This document shows, one piece after another, positions 12,467 to 59,929 of a stretch of DNA of 64,000 bases; position 1 is the stretch's first letter; each line of letters begins with the position of its first letter. The stretch lies in the IMG/VR virus record IMGVR_UViG_3300046170_000428. One strand, written 5' to 3'. A program made the translations under genes and the position numbers. The stretch comes from an uncultured virus (IMG/VR IMGVR_UViG_3300046170_000428). Lineage: Duplodnaviria; Heunggongvirae; Uroviricota; Caudoviricetes. A model generated the notes under the pieces. That model was not told where the DNA came from. It saw only the letters and a program-made list of their open reading frames with translations, and did not search any database.

Positions 12467-12475
12467 GTCTTTGTG

Positions 12476-12483: not shown

Positions 12484-12519
12484 GATTAAAGTTACATAAT
12501 ATGTATATAGGAAAATAGT

Positions 12520-19087: not shown

Positions 19088-19088
19088 A

Positions 19089-20054: not shown

Positions 20055-20057
20055 ATA
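20050..20057 (+). promoter_or_regulatory. T4-type late promoter TATAAATA
   Basis: Exact motif overlapping the gp7 stop. Confidence 0.7.
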
Positions 20058-20076
20058 ACCTAAACAGGATAAAAAC

Positions 20077-20898: not shown

Positions 20899-20899
20899 T

Positions 20900-22268: not shown

Positions 22269-22272
22269 AAAA

Positions 22273-25371: not shown

Positions 25372-25387
25372 TAAAGGAATTTAATAG

Positions 25388-28292: not shown

Positions 28293-28295
28293 ATT

Positions 28296-44055: not shown

Positions 44056-44734
44056 ATATGAAATAAAAGACAAAAGTACTAGCGCATATGCTGGAGATCG
44101 ATCAGAATCAAAGGTACAGTATACTCTTGATATGTGCAAAGATTCTATGGCAGATTATGCAGAGAGGCATGAATATGATTTTAAGTACATAACTGAAACT
44201 ACAGATTTTCATGAAAAGCAATGGAAAGACTATGATCCACGTGGTAAAATTCATTTTGAAAGTGGCGGCAAAACAACAAAATTAGGTGAAGATCTTTTTT
44301 GTGGTACAGGTTGGAAATATGTTTACGGCTGGTTTTATTATCTTCCAAAATTAGCACTTGAGTACGATCGTATTATTAAAACTGATACTGATGTATATGT
44401 TATGAATCCTGAAATTCCATTTCCAATTGAAAAAACTGGATTTGTAAGTAAATGTTTAAAAAACCTTGGTATAATTATGTTTGATAAAGAATCAGCAAAT
44501 GCTTATTATGAATGGGGAATTAAAAACCTAATTCATGAGGAAGGTTACTGGGATCTTATGAAAAAGTTTTTAAAAGTTCATCCACAATATGCTAATTTAA
44601 CTTTGCCTATAGAATTTCATAATACTATTGCGCGAGATCCTCAACCAGAAACATGTGTAATGTATCATTTATCTAGTATGCCAAATAATAAAAAATATAA
44701 AGGACTATGTACAGCATTAGAAAAATACACTTAG
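43991..44734 (+). CDS. glycosyltransferase-like protein (GT34/GT-A-like); start probably TTG at 44030
   Basis: SM.DYAERH.YDF, YDRIIKTDTDV (DxD), EFHN, MYH. Confidence 0.55.
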   Translation: MENVGGVWKGSGLLKTVIVQFEYEIKDKSTSAYAGDRSESKVQYTLDMCKDSMADYAERHEYDFKYITETTDFHEKQWKDYDPRGKIHFESGGKTTKLGEDLFCGTGWKYVYGWFYYLPKLALEYDRIIKTDTDVYVMNPEIPFPIEKTGFVSKCLKNLGIIMFDKESANAYYEWGIKNLIHEEGYWDLMKKFLKVHPQYANLTLPIEFHNTIARDPQPETCVMYHLSSMPNNKKYKGLCTALEKYT

Positions 44735-45693
44735 AGTCTACTGAAATATGTCAGGCAATGTGTCCTATGTGCGACCGAGTCACATTAGATGGTAAATTAA
44801 ATCCATGGATTACTAATGCTAGTCTTTCTCTTGATGATATCAGAGGTATGTTTCCAATAGGTTTTATAGAACAACTTAACGAGATGTATATGTGCGGCAA
44901 TCTCGGAGACCCAATGTTGGCTCCAGAATGCGTTGAAATATTTGCATATTTTAGAAAACATAATCCGAAAATATATCTTTCTATGAATACAAATGGAGGA
45001 GCTCGTAAGCCTGATTTTTGGAGGAATCTTGCTAAATTAACAAATCATGTTACATTTTCAATAGACGGTTTAGAAGACACCAATCACATTTATAGAAAGG
45101 GTGTTTCTTGGAAAAATGTAATGAATAATGTAAAGGAATTTATTAATGCTGGTGGAAAAGCAAAATGGGACTACCTGGTATTTGAACACAATGAACATCA
45201 AATCGAACTTGCAGAGGCAACCAGTACAAGACTTGGATTTGTTGATTTTAGAGTCAAAACGACTAACAGATATGATAAAAAACGCCCTGCATGGCAAACA
45301 TACTGGAGGGGAAAAGAACAAGAAATATTAAAACCGCCTAAACAAAAAAAATATCAAAGTGAAGTAGTTAATAATCCACTAAAAAATAAACATGAATTTA
45401 ATATAGATCCAAAATGTGTTAAAAATAAAGAAATATATATTTCTGCTAGAGGCCATGTATTTCCTTGTTGTTGGGCACATGCTTCTACATGTAGTTCTCA
45501 AAAATTAGATTTAGCTGATAAATTAGACATGAATTCAATGGTAAGAGAAAACAATGCAAAGGAAGTAGGAATAAATAAAGCTATAGAATGGTTTGATAGT
45601 ATATTTGAAAGATGGAATACTGATGATAAGCCATACATATGTTCAGCTAAGTGTAATATAAAACAAGATACAGTGAAATTACAATATGTATAA
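44707..45693 (+). CDS. radical SAM enzyme 9, C-terminal SPASM/twitch
   Basis: CQAMCPMC, GNLGDP, NTNGG, FSIDG; C-terminal C...VFPCCW...CSAKC. Confidence 0.9.
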   Translation: MYSIRKIHLESTEICQAMCPMCDRVTLDGKLNPWITNASLSLDDIRGMFPIGFIEQLNEMYMCGNLGDPMLAPECVEIFAYFRKHNPKIYLSMNTNGGARKPDFWRNLAKLTNHVTFSIDGLEDTNHIYRKGVSWKNVMNNVKEFINAGGKAKWDYLVFEHNEHQIELAEATSTRLGFVDFRVKTTNRYDKKRPAWQTYWRGKEQEILKPPKQKKYQSEVVNNPLKNKHEFNIDPKCVKNKEIYISARGHVFPCCWAHASTCSSQKLDLADKLDMNSMVRENNAKEVGINKAIEWFDSIFERWNTDDKPYICSAKCNIKQDTVKLQYV

Positions 45694-46753
45694 TAATGTG
45701 AAAATGGTTCATTTTGAACCAACTCAAATGTGTCAAGCTTCTTGCCCTATGTGTGATAGAAACAAAAATGGTGGAGAAGTGAATCAATATTTAAAAGATG
45801 AATCTATGACGCTCGAAGGTTTTAAAAAAGCCTTCTCAAAAGAATTTCTTGCAAATCTTAAAACTTTCTTTTTCTGTGGAAACCATGGAGATCCTATTTT
45901 TGCACCTGACATGTTAGAACATGCAAAATATGTTCGTGAGTGTAATCCTGAAATTAATATGTTTGTTACTACTAATGGTGGTGCACGTAAACCTGAATGG
46001 TGGGAAGAATTAGCAAAAGTAGTTTCATTTGTTAATTTTTCAGTTGATGGTTTACAAGACACTAATCATTTTTATAGACAAGGTGTTAAATGGCAAAATG
46101 TTGAAGATAATATGGCAGCATTTTGTGATGCTGGAGGTTATGCTAAATGGACATTTCTTGTATTTAATTATAATGAACATCAAGTAGAACAGGCTCGTAT
46201 GTTTGCCGAACTAATAGGTGTAAAAGATTTTATTGTAAAGAAATCTGGTAGATATATTAATACTGCAGACCTAAAGAAAAAAGATGATCATCAGGCAGTT
46301 TTTAGAGGGAAAGATGCTATTCGATTATCTCCACCAAAAGACCCTAAATATCGCAATAAAGCAATTGATAATGATTATGACAAAATAGTAGAAAAATATG
46401 GATCCATGGATAGTTTTATCGATGTTGCAGAAATTAAACCGAAATGTTTACAGAAACAAGAAATATACGTATCGGCTGAAGGTTTAGTTTTTCCATGTTG
46501 TTGGTTAGCAGGTCAAGTGTATAAATGGTGGAGACCTATTGAAAGCTCTCAAGAATATAAAGTTATTATGTCAACTGGCGGATTTGAAAAAATAAATGTA
46601 CATCATACTCCATTACAAGAAATTATTAACGGAGACTTTTTTGCTACCGTAAAGGGTAGTTGGGACATTCATGGAGTAGGACAAGGTAGAATGAAAACAT
46701 GTGCAACCAAATGTAATGTTGGTTTTGATCCTTTTGTGGCGCAGTGGGCATGA
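45686..46753 (+). CDS. radical SAM enzyme 10 (paralogue of enzyme 9)
   Basis: CQASCPMC, GNHGDP, TTNGG, VFPCCW, CATKC. Confidence 0.9.
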   Translation: MYNNVKMVHFEPTQMCQASCPMCDRNKNGGEVNQYLKDESMTLEGFKKAFSKEFLANLKTFFFCGNHGDPIFAPDMLEHAKYVRECNPEINMFVTTNGGARKPEWWEELAKVVSFVNFSVDGLQDTNHFYRQGVKWQNVEDNMAAFCDAGGYAKWTFLVFNYNEHQVEQARMFAELIGVKDFIVKKSGRYINTADLKKKDDHQAVFRGKDAIRLSPPKDPKYRNKAIDNDYDKIVEKYGSMDSFIDVAEIKPKCLQKQEIYVSAEGLVFPCCWLAGQVYKWWRPIESSQEYKVIMSTGGFEKINVHHTPLQEIINGDFFATVKGSWDIHGVGQGRMKTCATKCNVGFDPFVAQWA

Positions 46754-48108
46754 CTAAAATAATGGGCATTTCAGAGGGTAGTCACGATGCTGCATATGCA
46801 GTTATTGAACATGGTAATATTTTATCAGCGCATCATGCAGAAAGATGGACCCGGAAAAAAAATGAAAAATGGCTTTTACCTCGTTTTATGCCTTTTGGTA
46901 AAAATAAAAGAAAAAAACAACTTGTTGGTAAAGTTGATATTATTATAGGTCATGAAGATAAAAAAAGAGTAAATGAAAGAAGAATAAAAGCAGGCCAAAA
47001 ATTACTTATTGAAAATATACCAGTAAACTACTATTATAATCATTATGAAACTCATGCTTGGGCCGGATGGGCAACTGCACCTTTTGATGATTGTGATATA
47101 CTTTGTATTGATGCAATTGGCGAATCTGAATCAGCTACGGTATTTGAAGTTAGAAATAAAATATTTACTAAAACTTGGGAAATGGAATATCCACAGAGTC
47201 TTGGTTTAATATATTCTGCAGTTACTCATGGATTAGGTTATAAGCCTATGGAAGAAGAATATATTGTAATGGGATTAGCCGCATATGGTGAGCCGATAAT
47301 TGATTTTGAATATCTTATGGATGAAAATTGTCATAAAGGGATTAAATTACCAAATAATAGACCAGAAGATATTGCCGCATCAGTACAAGCATTATATGAA
47401 AAACAATTACTTATTTTAATAGATAAGTATTGTAAGCATGATAATCTTATTTTAATGGGTGGATGCGCACTTAATTGTGTAGCTAATTCAAAAATTAAAG
47501 GAAAAAATATTTGGATTATGCCAAATCCAGGAGATGCAGGGTCTTCTCTTGGAGCAGCGGCAAGGCATTATGGTGATAAAGTAAAATGGGAGGGACCATA
47601 TCTTGGAAAAGATATTGAAAGGAGCATTAATCCTTATGAAGTTGTTAGACATCTTTATGAGCACGGTGTTTGTGGTGTGGCTAATGGTCGTGCTGAGTTT
47701 GGCCCTCGGGCCCTTGGTAATCGCAGTCTTATTGCTGACCCCCGCCTTGATATTAAAGATACTGTTAATGAAATTAAAAGGAGACAAAAATTCAGACCAT
47801 TCGCACCTGCAATATTAGAAGAATATGCTAATGAATATTTTGAAGGGCCAATGAATGAATATATGCAATTTGTAGCAAAAGCAAAACATGATTATAAATC
47901 TGTTACACATGTCGATGGTACCGCAAGAGTGCAAGTGGTAAAACCAAATTGTAAATCTGTTATTAGACAAATTCTTGAGGAATGGTATGAATTAACAGGC
48001 TGTCCTATGTTATTAAATACAAGCTTAAATATTAAAGGACAGCCAATGGTTAATAGTTGGCAACATGCATTAGAATTTGAAAATAAATATGGTGTCAAAG
48101 TTTTTTAA
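46750..48108 (+). CDS. O-carbamoyltransferase (NodU/CmcH/TobZ family)
   Basis: HDAA, AER..R.K, H...HA, DAIGE, EEY.VMGLAAYG, GGCALNC.AN, GDAG.S.GAA, EFGPRALGNRS, KRRQKFRPFAP, HVDGTARVQ, LLNTSLN. Confidence 0.95.
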   Translation: MTKIMGISEGSHDAAYAVIEHGNILSAHHAERWTRKKNEKWLLPRFMPFGKNKRKKQLVGKVDIIIGHEDKKRVNERRIKAGQKLLIENIPVNYYYNHYETHAWAGWATAPFDDCDILCIDAIGESESATVFEVRNKIFTKTWEMEYPQSLGLIYSAVTHGLGYKPMEEEYIVMGLAAYGEPIIDFEYLMDENCHKGIKLPNNRPEDIAASVQALYEKQLLILIDKYCKHDNLILMGGCALNCVANSKIKGKNIWIMPNPGDAGSSLGAAARHYGDKVKWEGPYLGKDIERSINPYEVVRHLYEHGVCGVANGRAEFGPRALGNRSLIADPRLDIKDTVNEIKRRQKFRPFAPAILEEYANEYFEGPMNEYMQFVAKAKHDYKSVTHVDGTARVQVVKPNCKSVIRQILEEWYELTGCPMLLNTSLNIKGQPMVNSWQHALEFENKYGVKVF

Positions 48109-48659
48109 TGAATAAATTACTAATATTTGATCTTGATGGTGTTTTAGCTGATACTCGAGAAATACATTATCACGCTCTCAATGAAGCACTTGAAGAAATA
48201 CTAGGTAAAAAAGCTATTATCGATAGAGATACACATTTATCACAATATGATGGTCTTCCCACTACCGTAAAACTTAAAAAACTTAAAATAGATCCTAGTT
48301 ACCATAATGATATATGGTTATCGAAACAAGATAAGACAGAAGATCTTGTTGATAAACAAATTATGACTGATTTACCCCTTATTCAATTTTGTAAAAAATT
48401 AGAAAAGGAAGGAATTAAATTAGCCTGTTGTAGTAATAGCATTCGAAGTACAATCATTCGAGTACTTCAAAAATTAGGTATATATGATTATATGGATATC
48501 ATAGTATCAAATGAAGATGTAATGAATAATAAACCGCATCCTGAAATGTTTTGGAATGCAATGACAAGTATAGGTACTATTCCAGAAAAAACAGTTATTT
48601 TAGAAGATAGCCATATTGGTAGATTAGCAGCAATAAGATCTGGTGCCTATACTTCGTGA
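48108..48659 (+). CDS. HAD-family phosphatase (probably N-terminal domain of a HAD-nucleotidyltransferase fusion)
   Basis: IFDLDGVL.D, CCSNS, KPHPE, ILEDS..G. Confidence 0.9.
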   Translation: MNKLLIFDLDGVLADTREIHYHALNEALEEILGKKAIIDRDTHLSQYDGLPTTVKLKKLKIDPSYHNDIWLSKQDKTEDLVDKQIMTDLPLIQFCKKLEKEGIKLACCSNSIRSTIIRVLQKLGIYDYMDIIVSNEDVMNNKPHPEMFWNAMTSIGTIPEKTVILEDSHIGRLAAIRSGAYTS

Positions 48660-49488
48660 GATTCAAGATGCTAATTGTTTAAGAAATGTACATATACAAA
48701 ATGAGATAATTGATATGTTAAAAGATGCAGAAGAAAAAGTATCTGTTCCATGGAATAATTCTAATTTAAATGTTATTATTCCGATGGCAGGCAATGGTAC
48801 AAGGTTTGCTCAAAAAGGTTATTCTTTTCCAAAACCTTTGATTGATGTTAAAGGTGTGCCTATGATCGAAGCCGTCGTAAATAATTTAAATATTAAAGCA
48901 AATTATATTTTTATCGCAAAATCAGAGCATATTCAAAAATATAATTTAAATGATGTCATTCAAAACATGATGAAAGATAAAGCTTATAATGTTACTTTAG
49001 TAGAACAAGATCATACGCCAGTGGGTGCGGCATGTACTGTTTTACTTGCAAAAGAATATATTGATAATGATTCACCCATTCTTATTGCAAATTCAGACCA
49101 AATTTTTGAATGGAATTCAAATGAATGCATGTATGCATTTAAGCACGAAGAAATAGACGGTGGCATTTTAACATTTAAAAACTCACATCCAAAATGGTCG
49201 TATGCTGAGATAGCTGATAATGGATTTGTAAAACGTGTAGCCGAAAAAGTTCCATTACCGGGAAATAACGCTACAGTTGGTGTATATTATTGGCAAAGAG
49301 GATCTGATTTTGTACGTTATGCTAAGCAAATGATTGAAAAAGACATACGCGTAAATAATGAATTTTATGTTTGTCCAGTTTTTAACGAAGCTATTACTGA
49401 TGGTAAAAAGATTCGAGTCAAAAATGTAGATAAAATGTGGGGTATTGGAACACCAGAAGATCTAGAAGAATATTTAAGACATGAGTAA
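48643..49488 (+). CDS. sugar-phosphate nucleotidyltransferase (NTP_transferase family)
   Basis: IIPMAG.GTRF...GY..PKPLI, GAACTVL, IANSDQ, WSY, VAEK, NNEFYVCP, GIGTPEDL. Confidence 0.88.
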   Translation: MPILREIQDANCLRNVHIQNEIIDMLKDAEEKVSVPWNNSNLNVIIPMAGNGTRFAQKGYSFPKPLIDVKGVPMIEAVVNNLNIKANYIFIAKSEHIQKYNLNDVIQNMMKDKAYNVTLVEQDHTPVGAACTVLLAKEYIDNDSPILIANSDQIFEWNSNECMYAFKHEEIDGGILTFKNSHPKWSYAEIADNGFVKRVAEKVPLPGNNATVGVYYWQRGSDFVRYAKQMIEKDIRVNNEFYVCPVFNEAITDGKKIRVKNVDKMWGIGTPEDLEEYLRHE

Positions 49489-50116
49489 ATTATTAATTGC
49501 AAGCGGTTGTAGTTATACACAACAAGAGTATGAGGGATATTTAAAAAATGATATAACAACTTGGCCTGAACTTGTTGCTAAAGAATTAGATATTGAGTTT
49601 GTAAATGTTGCATGCACGAGCGCGCCAAACGATTATATTTGCAATTCTGTAACTGATGCTTTTTTTGACTATTCTCATCGTGACATTATTATCATGGTTC
49701 TTTGGACCGAATCAAATAGATGGTATCCAATAAAACCACCAAAAGAATTAAGAAAAAAAGATTGGTTAGTAGAATATCAACTTCGTTGTATGTGGAGGCT
49801 AAACGAATTTTGTAAGCAGCAACAAGTTCCATTATATCAAGGTCATTCTACATCGCTTTTACAACATCTAGACATTGAAGATAGGACTGATCTTTTAATG
49901 AATAATAAATATTATAGTCCTGAGTATTTTGGCCCGCAAAATCCGTGGAGTAATATGATGTGGATGGCTAATGAAACATATAGTATTCCTAATGATGGTC
50001 ATCCAAATCAAAAAGGGCATGATTGGATAGCGGAGTACTTTTTAATAAAATACGAAGGCGGTGATTTTGAAGTGCCTTCAGATAACTACAACAATATAGA
50101 GTTTGTTTATGACTAA
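49481..50116 (+). CDS. SGNH/GDSL-like hydrolase or acyltransferase 1
   Basis: ASGCSYT (block I), N.A...A.ND, DGHPN..GH (block V). Confidence 0.75.
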   Translation: MSKLLIASGCSYTQQEYEGYLKNDITTWPELVAKELDIEFVNVACTSAPNDYICNSVTDAFFDYSHRDIIIMVLWTESNRWYPIKPPKELRKKDWLVEYQLRCMWRLNEFCKQQQVPLYQGHSTSLLQHLDIEDRTDLLMNNKYYSPEYFGPQNPWSNMMWMANETYSIPNDGHPNQKGHDWIAEYFLIKYEGGDFEVPSDNYNNIEFVYD

Positions 50117-50921
50117 AAAATTATTAATTGCAGGTGGTGATAGCTGGTCATGTCCAACTGAGCACTATTATATAGAAGCCGGTATGGATAAAATTTGGCC
50201 AGATTTTGTTGCAGAGTTTTTTGATTGGGATATCATTCACACAGGACTCGGTGGCGCGGGCAATGATTATATTCATAATGCTGTAATTGATGCTATTGAA
50301 GCAAATCCAGATAGAGAAATTGTTGTAATGGTTGCATGGTCTCAAGCCATGAGATTACAACCATTTGATATGCCTATTAGTCAAATTACATTTAATGTCC
50401 ATATGCCAGATCTAGAACCACCATTTGGTCCTGTTAAAAACAGAGTTCAAGATGAGTTACGTCAATTATTGAGATTACATGTTGATTGTTATGACCCAAT
50501 AGGTAGTAAAGTTGTAGGACTTAAAAAAGATGATTGGTATCGATATATCGCTCGTTGGTCATTGAGAAATATTTACCTTTTAAATGAATATTGTAAAAAT
50601 AAAAATGTTGAGATTATCCATCATAGAGCTCTTAATATTTTAAACGGTATTGAATGGGTTTTTAATTCAAGGTTAGATCATAAAGAACGACATGTGATGA
50701 ATGAGTCAGTAAGAGCTGAGCATCCTATTAATCATTATTATTGGAAAATAAAAGAATGGGATAATGTTGTAGGTCCTGATTTATTTGAACGAGGAAGTTC
50801 TTGCTATGAACTTTATCCAAAATATTATCTGTCTAATCGAGAACAACATCCAAATACTAAAGGAATGGAATTAATTGCACATTCCTTTGTAAACAAATAT
50901 ATTGAAGTTTATGAAAAATAA
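50109..50921 (+). CDS. SGNH/GDSL-like protein 2
   Basis: GGDSWS, GLGGAGND, QHPN.KG. Confidence 0.75.
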   Translation: MTKKLLIAGGDSWSCPTEHYYIEAGMDKIWPDFVAEFFDWDIIHTGLGGAGNDYIHNAVIDAIEANPDREIVVMVAWSQAMRLQPFDMPISQITFNVHMPDLEPPFGPVKNRVQDELRQLLRLHVDCYDPIGSKVVGLKKDDWYRYIARWSLRNIYLLNEYCKNKNVEIIHHRALNILNGIEWVFNSRLDHKERHVMNESVRAEHPINHYYWKIKEWDNVVGPDLFERGSSCYELYPKYYLSNREQHPNTKGMELIAHSFVNKYIEVYEK

Positions 50922-50924
50922 TTG

Positions 50925-51803
50925 ATGACTAAAAAACTTTTAATTACAGGAGGAGATAGTTGGTCGTCTCTTCATGAAGGATATTATAAAGAAGCTGGTA
51001 TGGATAAAATCTGGCCAGGTTACGTTTCAGAGTTTTTTGATTGGGATGTTATTCATACCGGACTTGGCGGTGCTGGTAATGACTATATCCACAATACTGT
51101 AATTGACGCCATTGAAGCAAATTCTGATAGAGAAATTGTTGTGATGGTAATGTGGAGTCAAGCTATTAGATATGTTCCATTTGATTTACCTATCGGACAG
51201 CTTACTTTTAATGTACACGTGCCGCCACTAAATCCACCATTTGGGCCTGTAAGGATAGAAGCTCAAAATGCTTTAAGAAAATTAGCCAGTTTACATGTTA
51301 AATGTTATGATCCTAAACGAGATAAAGGTGAAAGCATAGGACAGCTTAATAGTTATGCAGCTGATGGTATTGATCAAAATGATTTTTATAGATGGATTGC
51401 TCGTTGGTCATTAAGAAATATTTACCTTCTAAATGACTATTGTAAACAAAGGAACATTCCAATTATACATCATAAATCTTTAAATATTTTTGATGGAATT
51501 GAATGGATACTTGATCCAATATTTAATCATGAAAATAAACGTTTAATGAATAAAGCTGTAAGATCTGAAAATTCAATAAATCATTACTATCATAAAATAA
51601 AAGAATGGGATAATGTTGTAGGTCCTGATTTATTCCAAAAAGGTAGTGATTGTTATTCACTTTATCCAAAATATTTTTTAAATAAATTAAATCCTCATGT
51701 AAATGCAAAAGGTATGCAATTAATAGGACACACATTTATTAATAAATATATTGAAGTTTATGAAGAACGATCAACTTCGGAAGCAGACTATGTCTATAAT
51801 TAA
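50925..51803 (+). CDS. SGNH/GDSL-like protein 3 (close paralogue of protein 2)
   Basis: GGDSWS, GLGGAGND; long blocks shared with protein 2 (KIKEWDNVVGPDLF). Confidence 0.75.
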   Translation: MTKKLLITGGDSWSSLHEGYYKEAGMDKIWPGYVSEFFDWDVIHTGLGGAGNDYIHNTVIDAIEANSDREIVVMVMWSQAIRYVPFDLPIGQLTFNVHVPPLNPPFGPVRIEAQNALRKLASLHVKCYDPKRDKGESIGQLNSYAADGIDQNDFYRWIARWSLRNIYLLNDYCKQRNIPIIHHKSLNIFDGIEWILDPIFNHENKRLMNKAVRSENSINHYYHKIKEWDNVVGPDLFQKGSDCYSLYPKYFLNKLNPHVNAKGMQLIGHTFINKYIEVYEERSTSEADYVYN

Positions 51804-52458
51804 ACAGCCATTATTAATAACTGGAGGTTGTAGTTTTGGAGACCCTAAAGAACCTGATTATAAAAATAGCGTAACAGTTTGGCCAATAGTTGTTTCTAAA
51901 ATTTTAGATATTAAATTATTAAATGTTTCGAAACAAGGAGCTAGTAATGACTATATTGAAAATATAGTATTTGATTCTATTTTACAAAATTATGAAAATT
52001 ATGATATACAAGTTATGGTACTTTGGACTGGCGCAGATAGAGTCAATGTATTTGACACGGATACTTATCCTGGAAATCACCAAGGTTACGATCAAAAGAA
52101 AATATTAAATAAAACTTTTCGTAATATAAAAAGATTAGATTTAATTTGTAGACAGTTTAATATTCCTTGCTATCATAGAATAGGTATAGGATTTGAAAAT
52201 AGCGATGAGTTGAATGAATGGTTAATTAAACATCCAATATTAAAAGAATTTAATTTATCGCTTTTTGAAATTATAAGTGGAAGATGGTCAAGTACAGGTG
52301 AAGGTGCTCATGCTCAATGGGTATTAGAAAATGGTCATCCGAATCAAGACGGTCAAAACGCAATTGCACAAATGTTCATAGATACTATGAATAATATACC
52401 ACTTGGAACATTAGGTACACAATCGAATTTAATTGAGGATAATTTTATTTATGACTGA
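51790..52458 (+). CDS. SGNH/GDSL-like protein 4
   Basis: GGCSFG, GASND, NGHPNQDG. Confidence 0.75.
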   Translation: MSIIKQPLLITGGCSFGDPKEPDYKNSVTVWPIVVSKILDIKLLNVSKQGASNDYIENIVFDSILQNYENYDIQVMVLWTGADRVNVFDTDTYPGNHQGYDQKKILNKTFRNIKRLDLICRQFNIPCYHRIGIGFENSDELNEWLIKHPILKEFNLSLFEIISGRWSSTGEGAHAQWVLENGHPNQDGQNAIAQMFIDTMNNIPLGTLGTQSNLIEDNFIYD

Positions 52459-53551
52459 TTTGAAATGGAGTCAATACGACTTTACAAAAATACCATTTGA
52501 TAATATAGTTAAAGTCGGTCAAAGGACTATGCTCCATCGAGACTTATTTACGGTGAGTTGGTTACTTGGTAGATTTTGTAATTATTCATGTTCTTATTGT
52601 TGGCCGTATGCATCTAGTCGAGTGAAAGATCATAGACCTATTGATTTGATTCTTATGACAATTGACGAGATTAAACGCCAATCTCGTGATAATGGATATA
52701 ATTCTTTTCATTTTAGTTTTAGTGGTGGTGAACCTACGTTTCATCCACAATATTTAGAAATTATGAAATATCTTGCAGACGATGTTCCTAATACTAACTA
52801 TCATTCCGTACATATGACTTCAAACATTTCACGTAAAATGAAATGGTTTGAAGAATATGCTAAAATTTGCGCTAAGTTTAATAGATCAAGTATTACCGCA
52901 TCATGCCATAGAGAACATGTTGATACTGATGCTAAAGTTGCAGATTTTGCAGATAAGTTAGAATATTGCCAAAGCCAAGATATTCAAGTTACAATTAACC
53001 AAGTAATGCTACCTGATAAGTTCGAACAGTGCTGGGATGACGCATTATATTTTCATGAAAGGGGAATTAATGTCACTCTTAAGCCTCAGTCTGATCCTAC
53101 TGCCAGCTTTATTGTTAATGGCTATACTGATGATATGCTTCAACGACTACATAATGGAATGCCTCAACGAGGATTTACCGATATCAAAAAACAAATATCG
53201 CGGCCGAAGCCAAAAGTGGAACTTGATCTCCGCTATGAAACGACTGGTGTTCCACAACATATGCAAGTTGAATTGGAGGATAGTAAAGGAGCCAAGTATT
53301 ACATGGATCAAGCTGAAAGATTTAATGCGTTTAACTTTAATAATTTTAGTGGTTGGAATTGCGAGTCAGGCTATCGTAGTATTATTATTCGTGAGCCTGA
53401 TGGCAATATTAAACGAAGCTACTCCTGTGATGACGAACCTTTAGGAAATATTACTACCGGATTTAAATTATTTGATAAACCAATGCCATGTATCACAAAA
53501 AGTTGTGTTTCTTCTGCCGATTCTAAGATTCCAAAAACTAAAAATGTATAA
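52451..53551 (+). CDS. radical SAM enzyme 11 (related to enzyme 5)
   Basis: CNYSCSYC, SGGEP, MTSN; C-terminal N.FSGWNCESG...C...PCITKSC. Confidence 0.9.
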   Translation: MTDLKWSQYDFTKIPFDNIVKVGQRTMLHRDLFTVSWLLGRFCNYSCSYCWPYASSRVKDHRPIDLILMTIDEIKRQSRDNGYNSFHFSFSGGEPTFHPQYLEIMKYLADDVPNTNYHSVHMTSNISRKMKWFEEYAKICAKFNRSSITASCHREHVDTDAKVADFADKLEYCQSQDIQVTINQVMLPDKFEQCWDDALYFHERGINVTLKPQSDPTASFIVNGYTDDMLQRLHNGMPQRGFTDIKKQISRPKPKVELDLRYETTGVPQHMQVELEDSKGAKYYMDQAERFNAFNFNNFSGWNCESGYRSIIIREPDGNIKRSYSCDDEPLGNITTGFKLFDKPMPCITKSCVSSADSKIPKTKNV

Positions 53552-53970: not shown

Positions 53971-56466
53971 ATGCGAGTACTGGTCGAACAAAGGACCTAC
54001 GTTAAAAGAGTTATAGTTGGCACACCTATTGCAAGCGTTAGAGAAGCAGGCATAGTTGATTCGGATGCTACACTTGCAATCGTTTTAGCCAATTCAATTG
54101 ATTCTGCCGAAGTAATTAACTTAATTGATTCAGCATATGTTCAAGCAAGACAAGTAGATCTGCAACGAGATTCGTCGTTTGTAACAGGTATTCTTGATAG
54201 TTCTCTAGGCGCACTTACAAATTCAATTATTCCGCATATTGACAGTTCGATCGATCTTGGTTCTCCAACTAAAAAATTTCGTAGATTATATCTTTCAGGT
54301 AATACTATTGTCCTTGGTGATTTAACACTTGGTGATGAAAGCGGTACATTTGTTATTAGAGATTCATCTGGTACAATATCAGCAGTTAATTTAGATGGTA
54401 ATACTACATCAGACCTCGCAGAAGGTTCAAATCTTTACTATACAAGAGCCCGATTTGATTCAGCTCTTAATGATACTATTTCAGATAGTGCTATTCGTAG
54501 TAAGTTTTCTGCATCAGGCGACATATCATATGATTCAAGTACAGGTCAATTTAGTCTAGATGTTGAAACCGTATACACACAGGCAAACTTTGAATCAGAT
54601 TTAAGTTTATCGCTTAATGCTACTAATGGTATTTCATACGATTCTTCTAATCATAAACTATCGCTTATAAACACCGGTGTTGATTCAGGCATTGTCGGTT
54701 CATCAACTCAAATTCCTATTCTTACAATTAATGCTCAAGGTAGAATTGATGCCGTTAGTACGGCAATAACTTTAGATTCATCTACAGCAATTAATCTTAT
54801 AGACTCTTCTTATGTAAGATCTCGGCAGATTACTTATAACACAAGCGACTTTACTGATAGTGCATATGTTATAGCTCAAATTAACAATTTAATTGATGGT
54901 GCTCCTGGTACTCTTGACACACTAAATGAAATCGCAGCGGCTCTTAATGATGATGATTCAGCTTATAATACACTTATTGGATTAATTGCTACTAAAACCG
55001 ATTTTGATTCTGCTGATGCAATTGCACTTATTGATTCTGCATATGTTCAGCTACGGCAAACACCACAAGATTTTGCATATAGTTCATTAACTGGTACACC
55101 TACTATTCCAACTTTTGGTACAGACTTTGTTGACTCTGCATATGTAGAATCAACTATTGATTCTGCTTATATCCAAGCACGTCAGCAATTGGTCGACTCG
55201 GCAAGCATTGTTCAGTTGGTAGATTCCACTTATGTTCAAGCAAGACAAATTACATACACAACTGCGGACTTTACTGATTCAGCTTATGTTACTGGATTAC
55301 CAGTAAGCACTTTTACAAATGATGCTAATTATCTTGATAGTACAAGTGTTCAAGGTGTCATCGATGCATCTTATATACAAGCAAGACAAACAACCTATGA
55401 TTTCTTAGATTCTAGCGAAGCTATAGCTCTTATCGATTCTGCATATGTTCAAACAAGACAAATAACTTATAATACATCAGATTTTGTTGATTCAGCTTAT
55501 GTCACTGCGCAAATCAACGCCCTTATTGCTGGAGCACCCGGAACACTAGATACTCTTGATGAAATTGCGGCCGCATTAAACGATGATGACTCGGCTTATG
55601 GGACTTTAGTTGGACTTATCAATGCTAAATCAGACGTTGATAGTATTGGCTCGTTAAGTAATGTAACTTATGGTGTGCCGAGCGAAGGTCAAATATTAAA
55701 GTATGATAGTGCCACTTCAAAATTTATTTTATCTGCAGATACAGGTGGAATTGATTCTGCCTATTTAGAAGCTAATTCACTTGATTCTGAAAGAACAATA
55801 TCGCTTATAGATTCATCATATGTTAATGCCCGAGTACAAGATCTTACTGGTGATGAATTTACATTTACTTTAGTTGATAGTGGCGCAATTGCAGGACCAA
55901 GAATAGTACTTGATAGAAATAGTTCATCTCCTGCAGATTCAGATGCATTAGCAAATATCGAGTTTAGAGGTAGAAATAGTGCAGATTCTAGTATCCAATA
56001 TGGTAAAATAGCAACATTTATTAATAACGCGACTGCAAATGCTGAAGTTGGTGAAATGCAATTCATCATTAAGCAATCTGGATTCGAACGCGTTAAAATG
56101 AAATTGAATTCTCAAGGTATAGTGCTTGATAATAGTGAGTCAATAGTATTCTCTGATGATTCAAATAGTCAATTATTATCACCAGGAAATTATACAGCTG
56201 ATCACGTTTTAACACTACCAGATTCAAGTGGTATTATTGCAACACGTAATCACATAACTACACTCATAGATTCAGCATATGTTCAACGAAGACAAAGCGA
56301 TGTAGAAACTGGGTTTTCTCTTGATTTTGCTGATAGCGTTGGAACTGTATTAGTTTCGCTTCCAATCGTTCAAGCAGCATCGATTGCAACTGGAGCTGTT
56401 GTTGGTTTTGGTAATTCAGTAACATTATTAGATAAAGATAGTGCAGAAGTAATCATTCAACTTTAA
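53971..56466 (+). CDS. fibre-like structural protein with many DS[A/S]Y repeats
   Basis: DLGS.TKKFRRLYLSG, EGSNLYYT.AR, two APGTLDTL.EIAAALNDD fibre motifs, repeated IDSAYVQARQ. Confidence 0.75.
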   Translation: MRVLVEQRTYVKRVIVGTPIASVREAGIVDSDATLAIVLANSIDSAEVINLIDSAYVQARQVDLQRDSSFVTGILDSSLGALTNSIIPHIDSSIDLGSPTKKFRRLYLSGNTIVLGDLTLGDESGTFVIRDSSGTISAVNLDGNTTSDLAEGSNLYYTRARFDSALNDTISDSAIRSKFSASGDISYDSSTGQFSLDVETVYTQANFESDLSLSLNATNGISYDSSNHKLSLINTGVDSGIVGSSTQIPILTINAQGRIDAVSTAITLDSSTAINLIDSSYVRSRQITYNTSDFTDSAYVIAQINNLIDGAPGTLDTLNEIAAALNDDDSAYNTLIGLIATKTDFDSADAIALIDSAYVQLRQTPQDFAYSSLTGTPTIPTFGTDFVDSAYVESTIDSAYIQARQQLVDSASIVQLVDSTYVQARQITYTTADFTDSAYVTGLPVSTFTNDANYLDSTSVQGVIDASYIQARQTTYDFLDSSEAIALIDSAYVQTRQITYNTSDFVDSAYVTAQINALIAGAPGTLDTLDEIAAALNDDDSAYGTLVGLINAKSDVDSIGSLSNVTYGVPSEGQILKYDSATSKFILSADTGGIDSAYLEANSLDSERTISLIDSSYVNARVQDLTGDEFTFTLVDSGAIAGPRIVLDRNSSSPADSDALANIEFRGRNSADSSIQYGKIATFINNATANAEVGEMQFIIKQSGFERVKMKLNSQGIVLDNSESIVFSDDSNSQLLSPGNYTADHVLTLPDSSGIIATRNHITTLIDSAYVQRRQSDVETGFSLDFADSVGTVLVSLPIVQAASIATGAVVGFGNSVTLLDKDSAEVIIQL

Positions 56467-56468
56467 TG

Positions 56469-56476
56469 TATAAATA
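56469..56476 (+). promoter_or_regulatory. T4-type late promoter
   Basis: Exact TATAAATA before the 56504 gene. Confidence 0.72.
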
Positions 56477-56503
56477 ACATAAGGAAACTAAAGGAATTAG
56501 AAA

Positions 56504-59170
56504 ATGGCAGATAGAATTCCACTAATTATTGAGGGATCGAGTATTCGAGAGATTCCGTCAGCTGACAGACTTGATGTCCAAGGGGCATTAGAAGTCAATG
56601 GGGATATTACACCCGGAACTGATTCGGCATACGATATTGGTACATCGTCACTTAAATTTAGAGATATTTACTTATCGGCTGGTACTATTCACCTAGGTGG
56701 TGTAAAGTTAAGAGCTGATGGTAATACATTATCTATTCAAGACAGTACTGGAGCATCCTCCGGTGTTGCAACTACATCTCTTGCAACAATAAGTACTGAC
56801 GATCTTTCTGAAGGTTTAACTAATCTCTTCACTACAGCAGCTCGAACACGAAGCCATATTCAAGTAACAGATGCTGGTGGTGATGGTTCTCTTACCTTTG
56901 ATTCTGCCTCAGGTTTATTTACATATACTGGACCTTCTGCTGCTGAAATAAGAGCTCACATGAATGTAGTTGATGCTGGTGGAGATGGATCATTTACTTA
57001 TGATTCAGCAACAGGTCAATTTACTTATACTGGTCCAAGTGCTAGTGAAGTACGAGCACATATTACGGCAAATAAAGGTGTAAGTATTACATCAGGCGAA
57101 ATTAATGTCGACTCTGCAAATATAAGAGGAATATTTTCCGCAGTTGATTCTGGCGGAGACGGAGCTTTTTCTTATGAAGAAGATACTGGTAAATTCATAT
57201 ATCGTGGACCATCTGCCACAGAAGTAAGAGCTCATATTAATGTAGTTGATGCTGGTGGAGATGGATCTTTTACTTATGATTCTGCTCTTGGAAAGTTAAC
57301 ATACACTGGACCTGATGCTACTGAAGTAAGAGCACATTTTAGTGCTGGTGAAGGTATTGATCTGGCTTCTGGCGTTATTTCTGGAGAAGATGCAACAGAT
57401 GTTAATAAAGGTATTGCTTCATTTAGTAGTGATCACTTTGACGTTACATCAGGTGCAGTTACTATTAAAGCTGATGGAATAGATGATACACATATTGATT
57501 TTGGTACAGGAACAAATCAAGTTAGCACTGCAGATATTCCAGAACAAACTAATCTATATTATACAGATGCTCGAGCTGACAGTGATGCAAAGAATGCTAT
57601 ATCTTTAACTTTTACTGGAGGTGATGGTGCAGCATCATATACACCAGCAACTGGTGTTATTTCAGTCACTGGACCATCTGCTGCTGAAGCAAGAGCACAC
57701 TTTAGTGGTGGAAATGGCGTAACTATTACAGACGGTTCTGTAGCAATTGGTCAACCTGTAGCTACTACCGATTCTGTTACTTTTGCTGGGATGACAGTTA
57801 CTGGTGATTTAAATGTTTCAGGTACAACAACTTCGGTTAATTCAATTTCTTATACTGTTAATGATCCATTAATTCATCTTGCTGATAGTAATGAGGTCGC
57901 TGATGTAGTTGATATTGGTTTTATAGGTCATTACTATCGAGATGGAGCGCGAAGACACGCTGGTTTATTTAGAAATGCTGATGACCAATCATTTAATTTG
58001 TTCAATAACATGGTTGACTCTGCATTTGATAGTGCGCTTCCACCAAACGTTATTAATACTGGAGCAACAGGATATACTTTAGCTAACTTGAATGCTGGTA
58101 CTGTTACTGGTACTTTTGTTGGTAACGTAACTGGTAATGTAACTGGAAGCTCTGGATCAACAACTGGTAATGCGGCAACTGCTACCGCTTTACAAACAGG
58201 AAGAACAATTGGTTTAAGTGGTGATGTTACTGCAACAGGTGTAAGTTTTGACGGAACAGGTAATATTACTCTTACTACTGCTATGGCAAATAATAGTGTT
58301 GATTTAACAACACATACTACTGGTAATTATGTTCAACAAGGTGCTACATCTGGTAACGGTATCTCAGGTTCAGTTAACTCAGAAGGCGGAACATTCACTG
58401 TAACATCAAATGCTACAAATGCAAATACAGGAAGTACAATTGTATTTCGAGATGGTTCAGGTAACTTCAGTGCAGGAACAATTACTGCCGCTTTAAGTGG
58501 TAATGCTTCAACTGCTACTAGCTCAACTAACTCTACTAATGCAACAAACTTTAACGTTGCTGCTGATAATAGTACTAACGCCACACATTACGTTATTTTT
58601 ACTGGTGGTGCCACTGGTAATCAGAGACCTAATTCTGATACTACATTAACATATAATCCATCTTCAAATACTTTATCAACTACTACGTTTTCTGGCGCTT
58701 TATCCGGTAATGCAACTACTGCTACCACTCTCCAAACCGCAAGAACTATCGGTGGTGTATCATTTAATGGTAGTGCAAATATTAACTTACCAGGTGTCAA
58801 TACAACTGGTAATCAAAATACTTCTGGTAATGCAGGTAGTGCTACTGTTTTACAGACTGCAAGAACTATTGGTGGTGTATCATTTAATGGTAGTGCAAAT
58901 ATTAACTTACCAGGTGTTAATACTTCTGGTAATCAAAACACTTCTGGTAATGCCGCAACTGCAACTGCATTGGCAACTGGTAGAACAATTTCTCTTACTG
59001 GAGATGCTACTGGAACATCTGGATCATTTAATGGTACAGGTAACGTAAGTATTTCAGTTGCTTTAGCTGCAAATACAGTATCTTCGACTGAATTAGTAAG
59101 TGCAAGTACATTGTTAATTAAAAATACAGCTGGAACAACGATTAAAACTATTATTGGAGCGGGTAGCTAA
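56504..59170 (+). CDS. tail fibre protein
   Basis: DIGTSSLKFRDIYL, DAGGDGS.TYDS..G..TYTGPSA.E.RAH repeats, GNAATATAL.T.RTI and GVSFNGSANINLPGV fibre repeats. Confidence 0.8.
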   Translation: MADRIPLIIEGSSIREIPSADRLDVQGALEVNGDITPGTDSAYDIGTSSLKFRDIYLSAGTIHLGGVKLRADGNTLSIQDSTGASSGVATTSLATISTDDLSEGLTNLFTTAARTRSHIQVTDAGGDGSLTFDSASGLFTYTGPSAAEIRAHMNVVDAGGDGSFTYDSATGQFTYTGPSASEVRAHITANKGVSITSGEINVDSANIRGIFSAVDSGGDGAFSYEEDTGKFIYRGPSATEVRAHINVVDAGGDGSFTYDSALGKLTYTGPDATEVRAHFSAGEGIDLASGVISGEDATDVNKGIASFSSDHFDVTSGAVTIKADGIDDTHIDFGTGTNQVSTADIPEQTNLYYTDARADSDAKNAISLTFTGGDGAASYTPATGVISVTGPSAAEARAHFSGGNGVTITDGSVAIGQPVATTDSVTFAGMTVTGDLNVSGTTTSVNSISYTVNDPLIHLADSNEVADVVDIGFIGHYYRDGARRHAGLFRNADDQSFNLFNNMVDSAFDSALPPNVINTGATGYTLANLNAGTVTGTFVGNVTGNVTGSSGSTTGNAATATALQTGRTIGLSGDVTATGVSFDGTGNITLTTAMANNSVDLTTHTTGNYVQQGATSGNGISGSVNSEGGTFTVTSNATNANTGSTIVFRDGSGNFSAGTITAALSGNASTATSSTNSTNATNFNVAADNSTNATHYVIFTGGATGNQRPNSDTTLTYNPSSNTLSTTTFSGALSGNATTATTLQTARTIGGVSFNGSANINLPGVNTTGNQNTSGNAGSATVLQTARTIGGVSFNGSANINLPGVNTSGNQNTSGNAATATALATGRTISLTGDATGTSGSFNGTGNVSISVALAANTVSSTELVSASTLLIKNTAGTTIKTIIGAGS
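58739..58954 (+). repeat. tandem 120-bp-period direct repeat in the fibre gene
   Basis: 58741-58800 and 58861-58920 differ at only two positions. Confidence 0.85.
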
Positions 59171-59925: not shown

Positions 59926-59929
59926 TGGT

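Follow-up and report, generated by a model that had tools for sequence, protein, structure and literature searches.

An Asp-Ser surplus in a tail fibre of an uncultured marine T4-like phage and its possible role in the fibre shaft

The tail-fibre protein encoded at positions 53971-56466 of the window (the whole stretch of 64,000 nucleotides that was analysed, from the uncultured virus IMGVR_UViG_3300046170_000428) contains the dipeptide Asp-Ser (DS) about four times as often as expected, and this surplus is real. In our view, the interpretation that best accommodates the data, to which we assign roughly even odds (about 0.5), is that Asp-Ser serves as structural punctuation of a homotrimeric fibre shaft, with no need of chemical modification. 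The shaft would be made of many short modules, each opening with hydrophobic-Asp-Ser-small. The capping and packing role that we infer for the pair is as follows: the Asp would cap the N-terminus of a short amphipathic helix or open a tight hairpin turn, hydrophobic residues at -1 and +4 would clamp the helix start, and the small Ser would pack on the adjacent trimer chain, at a spot with no room for Thr. DS would be kept at dozens of positions by selection for a stable rod that folds with its chains in register. The fibre gene and its surroundings comprise the following features.

53971..56466, plus strand: tail-fibre protein, 831 residues, no Cys, no Trp, 41 DS
54748..55650, plus strand: shaft segment, residues 260-560, with 17 DS sites and a parallel homotrimer model
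54775..55011, plus strand: copy 1 of a 79-residue duplication, residues 269-347, with the widespread fibre motif GAPGTLDTLNEIAAALNDD and PHROG fibre matches
55408..55644, plus strand: copy 2 of the duplication, residues 480-558, from its identity to copy 1, PHROG and PDB entry 9d93
55750..56463, plus strand: C-terminal part, residues 594-831, from invariant DS columns and orthologue identity
53606..53962, plus strand: 118-residue protein, matched by phrog_1084 and phrog_3304, 'L-shaped tail fiber protein assembly'
56504..59170, plus strand: second fibre protein, 888 residues, with PHROG tail fibre matches
22273..27506, plus strand: VrlC-like structural proteins (DUF4815, phrog_358), from Pfam, PHROG and tblastn to the HTVC008M 'VrlC protein'
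59170-60823: gp13/14-like neck ORFs, from Pfam and PHROG

Of the 16 PHROG families that match the fibre at E <= 0.1 (best 2e-19, over residues 289-347 and 494-558), ten belong to the tail category: nine stand for tail fibre or tail protein and one for tail fibre assembly. The tail collar fibre gp4 of PDB entry 9d93 matches the fibre motif in the second copy of the duplication (E 0.0026), and tblastn matches fall under annotated tail-fibre genes of cultured phages; all of these matches span only parts of the 831-residue protein. No Pfam family scored above cut-off for the fibre, and a profile of 13 of its repeat units gave no match to PDB sequences at E <= 10. Homologues of the 118-residue protein lie upstream of fibre genes in related loci, and HTVC008M gp061 and C48C1 CDS0205 bear the same assembly annotation. 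The second fibre shares an N-terminal module with the first (residues 35-174 and 86-195, respectively; 37% identity). It has a mild DS surplus (12 versus 6.5 expected), and DS[ADE] occurs eight times in it against 1.3 expected.

The fibre gene sits beside the second fibre gene, between the VrlC-like genes and the neck genes gp13 and gp14. A hypervariable block running from the VrlC gene to the neck gene gp14 has been described as the host recognition cluster of pelagimyophages and cyanomyophages; tail fibres and glycosyltransferases are encoded in it, to which some genomes add radical SAM cassettes (Zaragoza-Solas et al. 2020, PMC7029224). The window fits this layout, with VrlC-like ORFs marking the upstream border and gp13/14-like ORFs the far side. 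The terminase large subunit (TerL) of the phage is 71.5% identical to that of Phage C48C1 and about 48% to those of cyanophages, and its nearest cultured relatives are Kyanoviridae: C48C1, for which no host is named, and the Pelagibacter phages HTVC008M and Mosig. The ORF encodes a tail fibre and belongs to the host recognition cluster of its phage, an uncultured T4-like (Kyanoviridae-like) one of marine origin. A literature search returned no publication about fibres rich in Asp-Ser or about glycosylated fibres in these phages.

The stop-free translation of the plus-strand ORF contains 41 DS and 10 SD by direct count. From its composition (83 Asp, 110 Ser) 11.0 DS are expected, and 10,000 shuffles that kept the composition gave a mean of 11.0, a standard deviation of 2.95 and a maximum of 23; SD stands at expectation. 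Its z of 9.1 compares with 3.2 for the runner-up among the 36 window ORFs scored. A preliminary description of this DNA had put the counts at about 41 DS and about 8 SD, the first of which is exact and the second slightly low, and had held that composition alone cannot explain the excess, which the shuffles bear out. The contexts that it listed (IDSAYVQARQ, NDDDSAY, YDSSTG and LPDSSG) all occur in the protein. DS is followed by Ala at 19 sites and Ser at 12, and otherwise by Asp, Gly or Thr (two each) or by Ile, Glu, Asn or Val (one each); it is preceded by Ile at 10 sites, Val at 8 and Leu at 5, the rest being others. Density is about one site per 20 residues, and nine of the 40 gaps between successive sites are exactly nine residues long.

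Recent DNA repeats can be ruled out as the source of this excess on three grounds. Self-comparison of the fibre DNA by blastn gave only five short matches (30-73 nt, 78-90% identity). The long internal duplication (residues 269-347 and 480-558) is better preserved as protein (63 of 79 residues, 80%) than as DNA (154 of 237 nucleotides, 65%). Finally, the Ser codons at DS are drawn from both codon boxes (31 TCN, 10 AGY).

The surplus is a trait of the family. Among 121 homologues the median z is 9.1, and D-S occurs at 3.46 times expectation while D-T reaches only 0.36 times. The surroundings of 4849 DS sites in 120 homologues follow a fixed amphipathic pattern: the fraction of hydrophobic residues is 0.65 at -1, 0.57 at +4 and 0.55 at +7, against a background of 0.30, and at +2 Ala accounts for 0.48 whereas Lys, Arg, Leu and Pro are nearly absent. 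Ser is retained in 0.72 of cells at DS columns compared with 0.36 at other Ser columns, from which the motif is evidently under selection at the protein level. Substitution of Ser by Thr is rarer at DS columns (0.058) than at other Ser columns (0.135), so that Thr is avoided there and is not interchangeable with Ser. Fourteen DS pairs do not vary among 12 orthologues whose identity to the query, taken across the full alignment, is 43-58%. In the C-terminal part, residues 594-831, which is the best conserved among orthologues (85-87% identity to L001-L004), the DS at residues 614, 730, 751, 767 and 823 are invariant in 12 sequences. Marine T4-like phages carry the family widely, with 1050 proteins at E <= 1e-10 among the candidates scored.

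Two cultured fibres that match P0001, Kolga gp17 (z 1.0) and CRP-902 gp50 (z 2.0), are not DS-rich; they match other parts of the fibre and were for that reason dropped as a co-occurrence test. Phage C48C1, the nearest cultured relative, lacks an orthologue of the DS-rich fibre. The DS counts of the fibres that it does have give z <= 3.2, and DS-(A/D/E) is abundant in two C48C1 proteins.

The helix starts at DS and the position of DS at the chain interface are properties of predicted models. The AF2 monomer model of the whole fibre is poor (mean pLDDT 48.3, pTM 0.26); in it, 13 of 19 helices begin 0-2 residues after the Asp of a DS, whereas random placement averaged 2.7 and reached at most 10 over 20,000 trials. 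Four sites of the same model, the Y-D-S-x-x-G of residues 188, 224 and 579 and the R-D-S-S-G of residue 131, fall in turns of four residues that join two strands. A three-copy model of residues 260-560 scored 0.66 (best of three controls 0.00), the score being the model's own confidence, calibrated on two copies rather than three and with a different alignment source. The model passed the mark of the prediction tool, as did 20 of 30 proteins solved as one-chain pairs and one of 23 solved as single chains. The partner pLDDT is at least 78 and the runs share at least 87% of their contacts, and the prediction supports a parallel homotrimer for this segment. In this model the Ser of DS contacts the neighbouring chain at 16 of 17 sites, compared with 171 of all 301 residues (hypergeometric P 7e-4) and 3 of 15 other serines, where touching the neighbouring chain is not equivalent to being buried; the Asp lies on the inter-chain face at 15 of the 17 sites. 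The preliminary description had regarded a buried or helix-capping Ser as speaking against modification, and it is in this direction that the models, as models, point, by both the helix starts and the inter-chain contacts.

DS occurs in unrelated types of module: at helix starts, in hairpins and in the 'A-D-S-A-x-I-T-N-I-S-G' repeats carried by orthologues. Such a spread over several unrelated modules is unusual for one structural device. If Asp-Ser does punctuate the shaft, the fibre would represent an undescribed family of shaft modules, with no Pfam family and no solved structure; this would help in annotating host recognition clusters and in modelling fibres, and would not be surprising.

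The alternative that survives best, although we think it unlikely, is that DS-(A/S/D) is a recognition tag, and that a phage enzyme would modify the Ser on the fibre and on other outer virion proteins in the cytoplasm, where the virion proteins of tailed phages assemble, before or during assembly. This is the idea of the preliminary description without its Bacteroidota machinery. The likeliest enzyme would be a GT8-fold transferase from a reverse-strand cassette, working with sugars that the neighbouring island makes or tailors.

29722..32668, minus strand: five-gene cassette of small genes, inside the structural module
31967-32668, minus strand: GT8-fold-like protein (AF2 pLDDT 91.6; Foldseek)
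30303-30896, minus strand: GT8-fold-like protein, relative of ORF 31967-32668 (hhalign 95%)
29722-30390, minus strand: GT8-fold-like protein, cassette member
30887-31519, minus strand: methyltransferase-like protein (Atlas match, a lead only)
31516-31980, minus strand: cassette member without assigned function
32742..53551, plus strand: radical SAM and sugar-tailoring island (Pfam, PHROGs, NCBIfam)

The cassette is predicted to encode GT8-fold transferases, and the earlier statement that the island encodes glycosyltransferases is thereby upheld. The best PDB matches to the model of ORF 31967-32668(-) in Foldseek are the GT8/GT-A enzymes LgtC, glycogenin, UGGT and GlyE, and its neighbours also include the Skp1 galactosyltransferase; the cassette proteins have an invariant D-L-D (D-x-D), and hhalign values within the family are 95% and 68%. 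The Pfam GT8 match (E 0.0033) lies below cut-off, and Atlas look-ups gave GT8 at 0.95 and methyltransferase at 0.96-0.97, as leads only. ORF 43991-44734 was rejected as a further relative (hhalign probability 0.06%). The fold neighbours favour a tag in that some of them, glycogenin, GlyE from the pathway of the pneumococcal serine-rich adhesin, the Skp1 galactosyltransferase and UGGT, have proteins or protein-linked glycans as their substrates, in the cytoplasm or the ER. That GT8 enzymes as a rule lengthen glycans rather than start them on Ser counts against it, as does the Pfam scan of 64 window ORFs at E <= 0.001, in which no GT4/GT-B initiating transferase appeared, divergent members being able to escape such a scan.

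The island itself contains 13 radical SAM ORFs, and eight of them attain the NF033640 cut-off (N-terminal twitch radical SAM). It also has one ORF each of PP-loop/QueC-like, NodU-like carbamoyltransferase, HAD/beta-phosphoglucomutase-like and sugar-1-phosphate nucleotidylyltransferase type, as well as several that fall into no family. The nucleotidylyltransferase, HAD enzyme and carbamoyltransferase imply that the island handles activated sugars, which would suit a modifying role. Four paralogues at 49481-52458 have SGNH/GDSL-like motifs, a lead only; a PDB profile search with them gave non-significant matches only (GDSL-like protein, E 0.28). Radical SAM peptide chemistry on D-S-x-Y was rejected, since there are contigs that carry DS-x-Y/F-rich fibres but lack any radical SAM gene, and a link of DS to protein-isoaspartate repair by the methyltransferase-like ORF was dropped because it rests only on a 0.87 Atlas neighbour.

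The virion proteins offer evidence in favour of a tag. DS-(A/D/E) is about fourfold enriched in the other outer virion proteins of this phage (29 versus 7.2 expected, z 8.2), which have unrelated folds, but not in the inner proteins (5 versus 3.1) or the island enzymes (2 versus 5.0). The DS sites of the VrlC protein in the window are occupied by other residues in the HTVC008M and C48C1 orthologues, and in VrlC the motif looks like a clade-specific overlay and not a requirement of the fold. The Ser at DS of the fibre is kept twice as well as other Ser, as would be expected of an acceptor, and phage-encoded O-glycosylation of virions is said to have a precedent in actinobacteriophages.

Co-occurrence with the transferases also speaks for a tag. 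A member of the GT8-like family was found on eight of the nine longer IMG/VR contigs searched that carry DS-rich fibres, and the ninth, L042, has a sub-threshold Pfam GT8-like ORF, a count that covers only those DS-rich fibres with a visible neighbourhood. The synteny is shared by descent, however, and the contigs are therefore not independent cases. The short contigs L018, L020, L035, L038 and L045 (8-15% complete) have DS-rich fibres in different gene surroundings and no glycosyltransferase or radical SAM gene, and are too short to count. A tblastn search of cultured phages with the GT8-like protein gave nothing, and a profile search for the family picked up weak members both in Mosig and in C48C1. 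The transferase family is represented twice in phage Mosig, once within an island of radical SAM, carbamoyltransferase and methyltransferase genes, yet none of the 11 outer proteins of Mosig tested is DS-enriched. There were no radical SAM matches on two DS-rich-fibre contigs of 74.9 and 41.6 kb. The expectation of the preliminary description that island and DS-rich fibre should occur together thus fails for the radical SAM genes, which are neither necessary, from these two contigs, nor sufficient, from Mosig. A surplus that is independent of the radical SAM island, and a similar island without the surplus, were counted in favour of a structural role.

Two further points weigh against a tag. 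In the trimer model a bulky glycan every nine residues would be hard to fit at Ser residues that contact the neighbouring chain. The authors who described the host recognition cluster ascribe its glycosyltransferases instead to modification of the host O-chain (PMC7029224). Taken together, the evidence tested leans mostly away from the Ser of DS as the acceptor of island enzymes. The fuller version of the proposal, to which we give slightly less credence, is that a marine T4-like clade writes a hydrophobic-Asp-Ser-(Ala/Asp/Ser) tag into its fibres and outward virion proteins, and that the tag would be recognized by GT8-fold transferases from the host recognition cluster, which would coat the exterior of the tail with an unusual, island-tailored sugar. 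If this were so, abundant ocean phages would have a target for their sugar and radical SAM islands, which are large and have so far lacked an explanation, the motif would be a new kind of protein glycosylation sequon, and cytoplasmic virion glycosylation with its own sequon would be undescribed for phages of Gram-negative marine bacteria.

We consider it improbable that the three chains, with the side chains of their Asp and Ser, form ligand rings for Ca2+ or Mg2+, along the axis or between subunits, through which DS would stiffen the outer parts of the virion in sea water. The predicted inter-chain position of both residues would allow this; a further Asp often follows DS (0.13 family-wide), D-S-D/E turns up frequently among the remaining outer proteins of the virion, and marine phages often need divalent cations. 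Against this, no calcium-binding family was matched, Pfam having returned none above cut-off, and Ala is the commonest residue after DS. The orthologue cluster P0013 was automatically named 'Ca2+-binding EF-hand superfamily protein' by its source, which is a weak pointer to cation binding. Lastly, in a visibly repetitive protein so rich in Ser and Asp, the surplus might be put down to composition, or to one DS-containing unit having recently been duplicated in tandem, with DS itself under no selection; this is already refuted by the shuffles with SD at expectation, the short and diverged DNA self-matches, the long duplication that is better kept in protein than in DNA, the codon usage and the invariant DS positions in orthologues.

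Comparison with the described host recognition clusters indicates a close likeness in gene content: the window likewise combines tail fibres, GT8-type glycosyltransferases and radical SAM cassettes, and the cultured pelagimyophage Mosig carries a comparable island. It differs in that the phage is only distantly related to cultured members and in that the part of the published account available mentions no Asp-Ser bias of fibres (PMC7029224).

The general protein O-glycosylation system of Bacteroidota recognizes D-(S/T)-(A/I/L/V/M/T), extended to S/G/F/C at the third position (PMC8729774; PMC8550257), and acts only on proteins that are exported out of the cytoplasm (PMC8729774). The third position of the strict sequon is matched by 23 of the 41 DS sites in the fibre and that of the extended one by 37. 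Thr, however, is not interchangeable with Ser in the fibre family, as both the D-T deficit and the substitution rates indicate, and phage fibres assemble in the cytoplasm whereas the substrates of that system are exported. Nothing points to a Bacteroidota host, the cultured relatives infecting Pelagibacter or having no named host. The analogy drawn in the preliminary description therefore breaks down on the equivalence of Ser and Thr and, by implication, on compartment.

Work attributed to Freeman et al. in Cell Host Microbe in 2023 is said to have found phage-encoded O-glycosylation of virions in actinobacteriophages, with glycans reportedly located by mass spectrometry on capsid and tail-tube subunits. 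There the phage glycosyltransferases adjoin structural genes, and here the GT8-fold ORFs at 29722-32668(-) lie within the structural module; in this case too the phage might be decorating its own virion. The candidate acceptor here, in contrast, is a fibre.

In Gram-positive cocci, adhesins with Ser-rich or Ser-Asp repeats are glycosylated by GtfA/B and GT8 enzymes such as GlyE, and by SdgA/SdgB; the repeats are disordered, and an initiating GT4/GT-B enzyme is required. The resemblance would lie in a repetitive fibre at the surface that is densely O-glycosylated in the cytoplasm, on Ser specifically and with GT8-fold enzymes involved, GlyE being itself a Foldseek match. The Pfam scan found no such initiating enzyme in the window, and the DS sites of the fibre are predicted to be in ordered, inter-chain positions.

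The known motif closest to the proposed structural role is the helix N-cap with a hydrophobic staple, in which N' and N4 are hydrophobic and Ser, Thr, Asp or Asn occupies the N-cap. N-caps in general do not pair Asp strictly with Ser, avoid Thr or follow one another so densely. In both, however, a polar cap is flanked by two hydrophobic positions, hydrophobic(-1)-D-S-x-x-hydrophobic(+4) in the fibre family, and 13 of the 19 helices in the low-confidence fibre model begin within two residues of the Asp of a DS.

The gene at 53971–56466 (+) encodes a fibre protein of 831 residues that contains no Cys and no Trp. No Pfam family was found for it; 16 PHROG families match at E <= 0.1, ten of them in the tail category, and the tail-category matches all fall on both copies of a widespread fibre motif. 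We count 41 Asp-Ser (DS) and 10 Ser-Asp (SD) dipeptides in this protein, where the preliminary description gave about 41 and about 8; the first figure stands and the second was slightly low. Composition predicts 11.0 DS pairs, and in a comparison with shuffled sequence proposed in that description 10,000 shuffles averaged 11.0 ± 2.95 and never exceeded 23, in agreement with its view that composition is insufficient to account for the DS count. All of the DS contexts that it cited were found. DS is mostly preceded by Ile, Val or Leu and is followed by Ala in 19 cases and by Ser in 12, and the nine-residue spacing described as frequent is present in nine of the 40 gaps. The DS observation is confirmed. 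Furthermore, repeats in the DNA do not account for the excess, because self-blastn gives only five short, diverged matches (30–73 nt, 78–90% identity), the one long duplication (residues 269–347 versus 480–558) is more similar in protein (63/79 identical) than in DNA (154/237), the DS serines use both codon boxes (TCN 31, AGY 10) and the DS z score of 9.1 is unmatched among the 36 window ORFs tested, the runner-up having 3.2.

The DS excess is shared across the family. Of the candidates scored in a protein search, 1050 were relatives at E <= 1e-10, and statistics were compiled over 121 proteins (the query, one identical cluster representative and 119 others). The median DS z score is 9.1, with z > 4 in 115 proteins and z > 6 in 104; D-S occurs at 3.46 times expectation and D-T at 0.36 times. 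Serine is kept in 0.72 of the 2041 alignment cells at DS columns, compared with 0.36 at other Ser columns, and is replaced by Thr in 0.058 and 0.135, respectively. Across 12 orthologues whose full-alignment identity to the query is 43–58%, 14 DS pairs are invariant. At the 4849 DS sites the fraction of hydrophobic residues is 0.65 at −1, 0.57 at +4 and 0.55 at +7 (background 0.30), with Ala at +2 in 0.48 and Tyr at +3 in 0.22. This context is periodic in the manner of a short amphipathic helix and also fits the hydrophobic-staple N-cap, a textbook motif.

Among the sampled members of the fibre protein set (P0001–P0030, then each tenth), the closer homologues, to P0070, are 687–1224 residues long and all have 39–49 DS pairs, while the more distant ones beyond P0070 have 23 to 55. 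Length variation among the close homologues seems to come mostly from DS-poor modules. At columns ~240–370 of the 12-orthologue alignment the orthologues bear one to four 28-residue repeats (G-G-D-G-S...Y-D-S...G-P-S-A-x-E-V-R-A-H) that are absent from the fibre at 53971–56466. Several copies are found in the second fibre (56504–59170), and shaft modules seem to have been swapped between the adjoining fibre genes.

The AF2 model of the fibre monomer is poor (pLDDT 48.3). In this model 13 of the 19 helices start 0–2 residues past the Asp of a DS pair; in 20,000 trials of random placement the average was 2.7 and the highest value 10. Y-D-S-x-x-G at 188, 224 and 579 and R-D-S-S-G at 131 lie in four-residue interstrand turns. 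Three copies of residues 260–560 gave a trimer model scoring 0.66, which is above the tool's mark, the best of three controls scoring 0.00; the mark, reached by 20 of 30 same-chain-pair structures and one of 23 single-chain structures, was calibrated on two copies and other alignments, as against three copies here. Partner pLDDT is at least 78 and contact agreement between runs is at least 87%. The Ser of DS contacts the adjacent chain at 16 of the 17 sites, compared with 171 of 301 for all residues (P = 7e-4) and three of 15 for other serines; such contact is not equivalent to burial, and these are models, not structures. In our view, the most likely explanation, with a probability of roughly one half, is that DS serves as structural punctuation of a homotrimeric shaft. 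The preliminary description took DS as a sugar acceptor and noted that buried or capping serines would argue against this; within the limits of the models, the serine positions do argue against it.

The window is part of an uncultured marine T4-like myovirus (G+C ~33%), with genes for gp32, the baseplate wedge, neck proteins gp13/14/15 and a T4-type large terminase. The closest cultured relative is Phage C48C1 (Kyanoviridae), with a TerL 71.5% identical, followed by cyanophages at ~48%. An island lies between VrlC and the fibre, and the features of this region are as follows.

22273–27506, VrlC-like structural genes, on one side of the fibre, with the neck genes on the other
29722–32668 (−), island cassette of five small genes
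32742–53551 (+), island block of 13 radical SAM ORFs, 8/13 reaching the NF033640 cut-off (N-terminal twitch radical SAM), together with PP-loop, NodU-like carbamoyltransferase, HAD/beta-phosphoglucomutase-like and sugar-1-phosphate nucleotidylyltransferase ORFs
Directly upstream of the fibre, 118-aa gene, PHROG 'L-shaped tail fiber protein assembly'
56504–59170, second fibre gene, adjoining the fibre at 53971–56466

The 13 radical SAM ORFs of the window are packed in this single 21 kb block, and the eight NF033640 members are paralogues. In mid-block (39935–40994) there are two adjoining paralogues without a family, 44% identical over 170 aa. Four further paralogous ORFs (49481–52458; pairwise 23–65% identical) have three motifs in common (N-terminal G-G-(D/C)-S, a G-x-N-D block and C-terminal H-P-N), which recall SGNH/GDSL hydrolases; their Pfam search was empty and a PDB profile search was non-significant (GDSL-like protein, E 0.28). 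Within the baseplate module, 11969–12568 (−) has the N-terminal domain of a TnsA-like endonuclease (Pfam E 2.4e-15) and could encode a mobile or homing enzyme. Two short ORFs (1999–2466 and 3699–4049) may be gene fragments or auxiliary genes; one matches part of a Na+/Pi cotransporter domain (E 1.7e-15) and the other the N-terminal NAD+-binding domain of DNA ligase (E 1.7e-10).

The 14 outer structural proteins of the window (17249–29243 and 56504–60823) contain 29 DS-(A/D/E) tripeptides versus 7.2 expected (~4x, z 8.2), compared with 5 versus 3.1 in 13 inner or DNA-handling proteins and 2 versus 5.0 in 27 island enzymes. A wedge protein (4 versus 0.54), VrlC (7 versus 1.46), a 194-aa fibre-like protein (3 versus 0.35) and the second fibre (8 versus 1.3) are enriched; the gp6-like and gp13/14-like proteins are not. 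When VrlC orthologues are compared, the window (7 versus ~1.4) and the related locus L024 (7 versus 1.2) have the excess, but HTVC008M (1 versus 2.4), C48C1 (0 versus 2.4) and Mosig (1 versus 2.2) do not, and distant orthologues have other residues at the DS sites of the window VrlC. The pattern resembles a clade-wide overlay affecting the outer proteins. An overlay of this kind would be predicted by a tag or by a common requirement, for instance for cation binding; it is unexpected from a purely fold-bound motif and in this respect counts against structural punctuation.

We regard it as unlikely that DS is a tag that marks serines for modification by the GT8-like cassette, but candidate enzymes are present. 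The 31967–32668 product, folded with 46 homologues, gave a model with pLDDT 91.6 whose best PDB neighbours are LgtC (E 2.7e-8), glycogenin, the UGGT catalytic domain, LARGE1 and GlyE; these are retaining GT-A enzymes of the GT8 kind, and D-L-D is invariant in the family. By hhalign, kinship to this family has a probability of 95% for 30303–30896, which also has a sub-threshold Pfam GT8 match (E 0.0033), and 68% for 29722–30390. The earlier statement that the island holds glycosyltransferases is therefore borne out at the fold level. A further candidate member, 43991–44734, was rejected, as hhalign shows no kinship.

Radical SAM genes are not required for DS-rich fibres: there are no PF04055 matches on the 74.9 kb contig that holds L037 (fibre z 10.8) or the 41.6 kb contig that holds L029 (fibre fragment z 4.8; z 7.5 for the complete copy of this fibre on L013), compared with 11 on the contig of L006. 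Nor is the island sufficient for the excess, because the cultured Pelagibacter phage Mosig (MT647606.1) has a comparable one between VrlC and fibre (three MoaA-like radical SAM genes, a carbamoyltransferase, a homologue of the window methyltransferase-like ORF and a weak GT8-like family member) and DS enrichment is absent from all 11 outer proteins tested in this phage (z −1.5 to 1.1; DS-(A/D/E) 0 or 1 each). The Mosig island (record ~55000–74400) also encodes aminotransferases, Asp/Arg-hydroxylase-like proteins and an epimerase, and Mosig could be an experimental model for tailoring islands. The GT8-like family tracks the DS-rich fibre where visible, being found on eight of the nine longer IMG/VR contigs searched that bear such fibres; a Pfam GT8 ORF below threshold is present on the ninth, L042. 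The positive contigs inherited their synteny from a common ancestor and do not count as independent cases. Both the family and DS-rich fibres are absent from HTVC008M (NC_020484.1). Five short contigs (8–15% complete) with DS-rich fibres in other contexts show no GT8-like gene and are too short to judge. Of the co-occurrence proposed earlier between island and DS-rich fibres, the radical SAM part fails and the GT8-like part holds for these related contigs. A cation-binding role, which the outer proteins would also accommodate, is a minor and distinctly improbable rival; chance or recent duplication is excluded.

We note that HTVC008M, at the corresponding position beside its fibres (record 56402–59681), encodes four 2OG-Fe(II) oxygenases and a ferrochelatase-like protein in a reverse-strand cassette that lacks glycosyltransferase and radical SAM genes. 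In the 344 kb Ralstonia jumbo phage RsoM2USA (MG752970.1; 215958–218508), homologues of the window methyltransferase-like and first twitch radical SAM ORFs adjoin, which hints at a conserved core pair of islands.

The layout of the window matches the 'host recognition cluster' of pelagimyophages and cyanomyophages, described in PMC7029224 as a hypervariable VrlC-to-gp14 block that contains fibres, GT8 glycosyltransferases and radical SAM cassettes. Literature searches, with passages of that work among the text covered, turned up no account, for these phages, of fibres rich in Asp-Ser or of fibre glycosylation; the supplements of that work may list the fibre families. The Bacteroidota O-glycosylation motif with which the DS sites had been compared is given in PMC8729774 as D-(S/T)-(A/I/L/V/M/T), extended to S/G/F/C, for a system that acts only on proteins sent beyond the cytoplasm. 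The three-residue form of the analogy holds, with 23 of the 41 fibre sites fitting the strict motif and 37 the extended one, but the Thr acceptor does not. The fibre is not a substrate of the Bacteroidota system, because its family avoids Thr, phage fibres are assembled in the cytoplasm and nothing indicates a Bacteroidota host; the two are at most analogous, with different enzymes.
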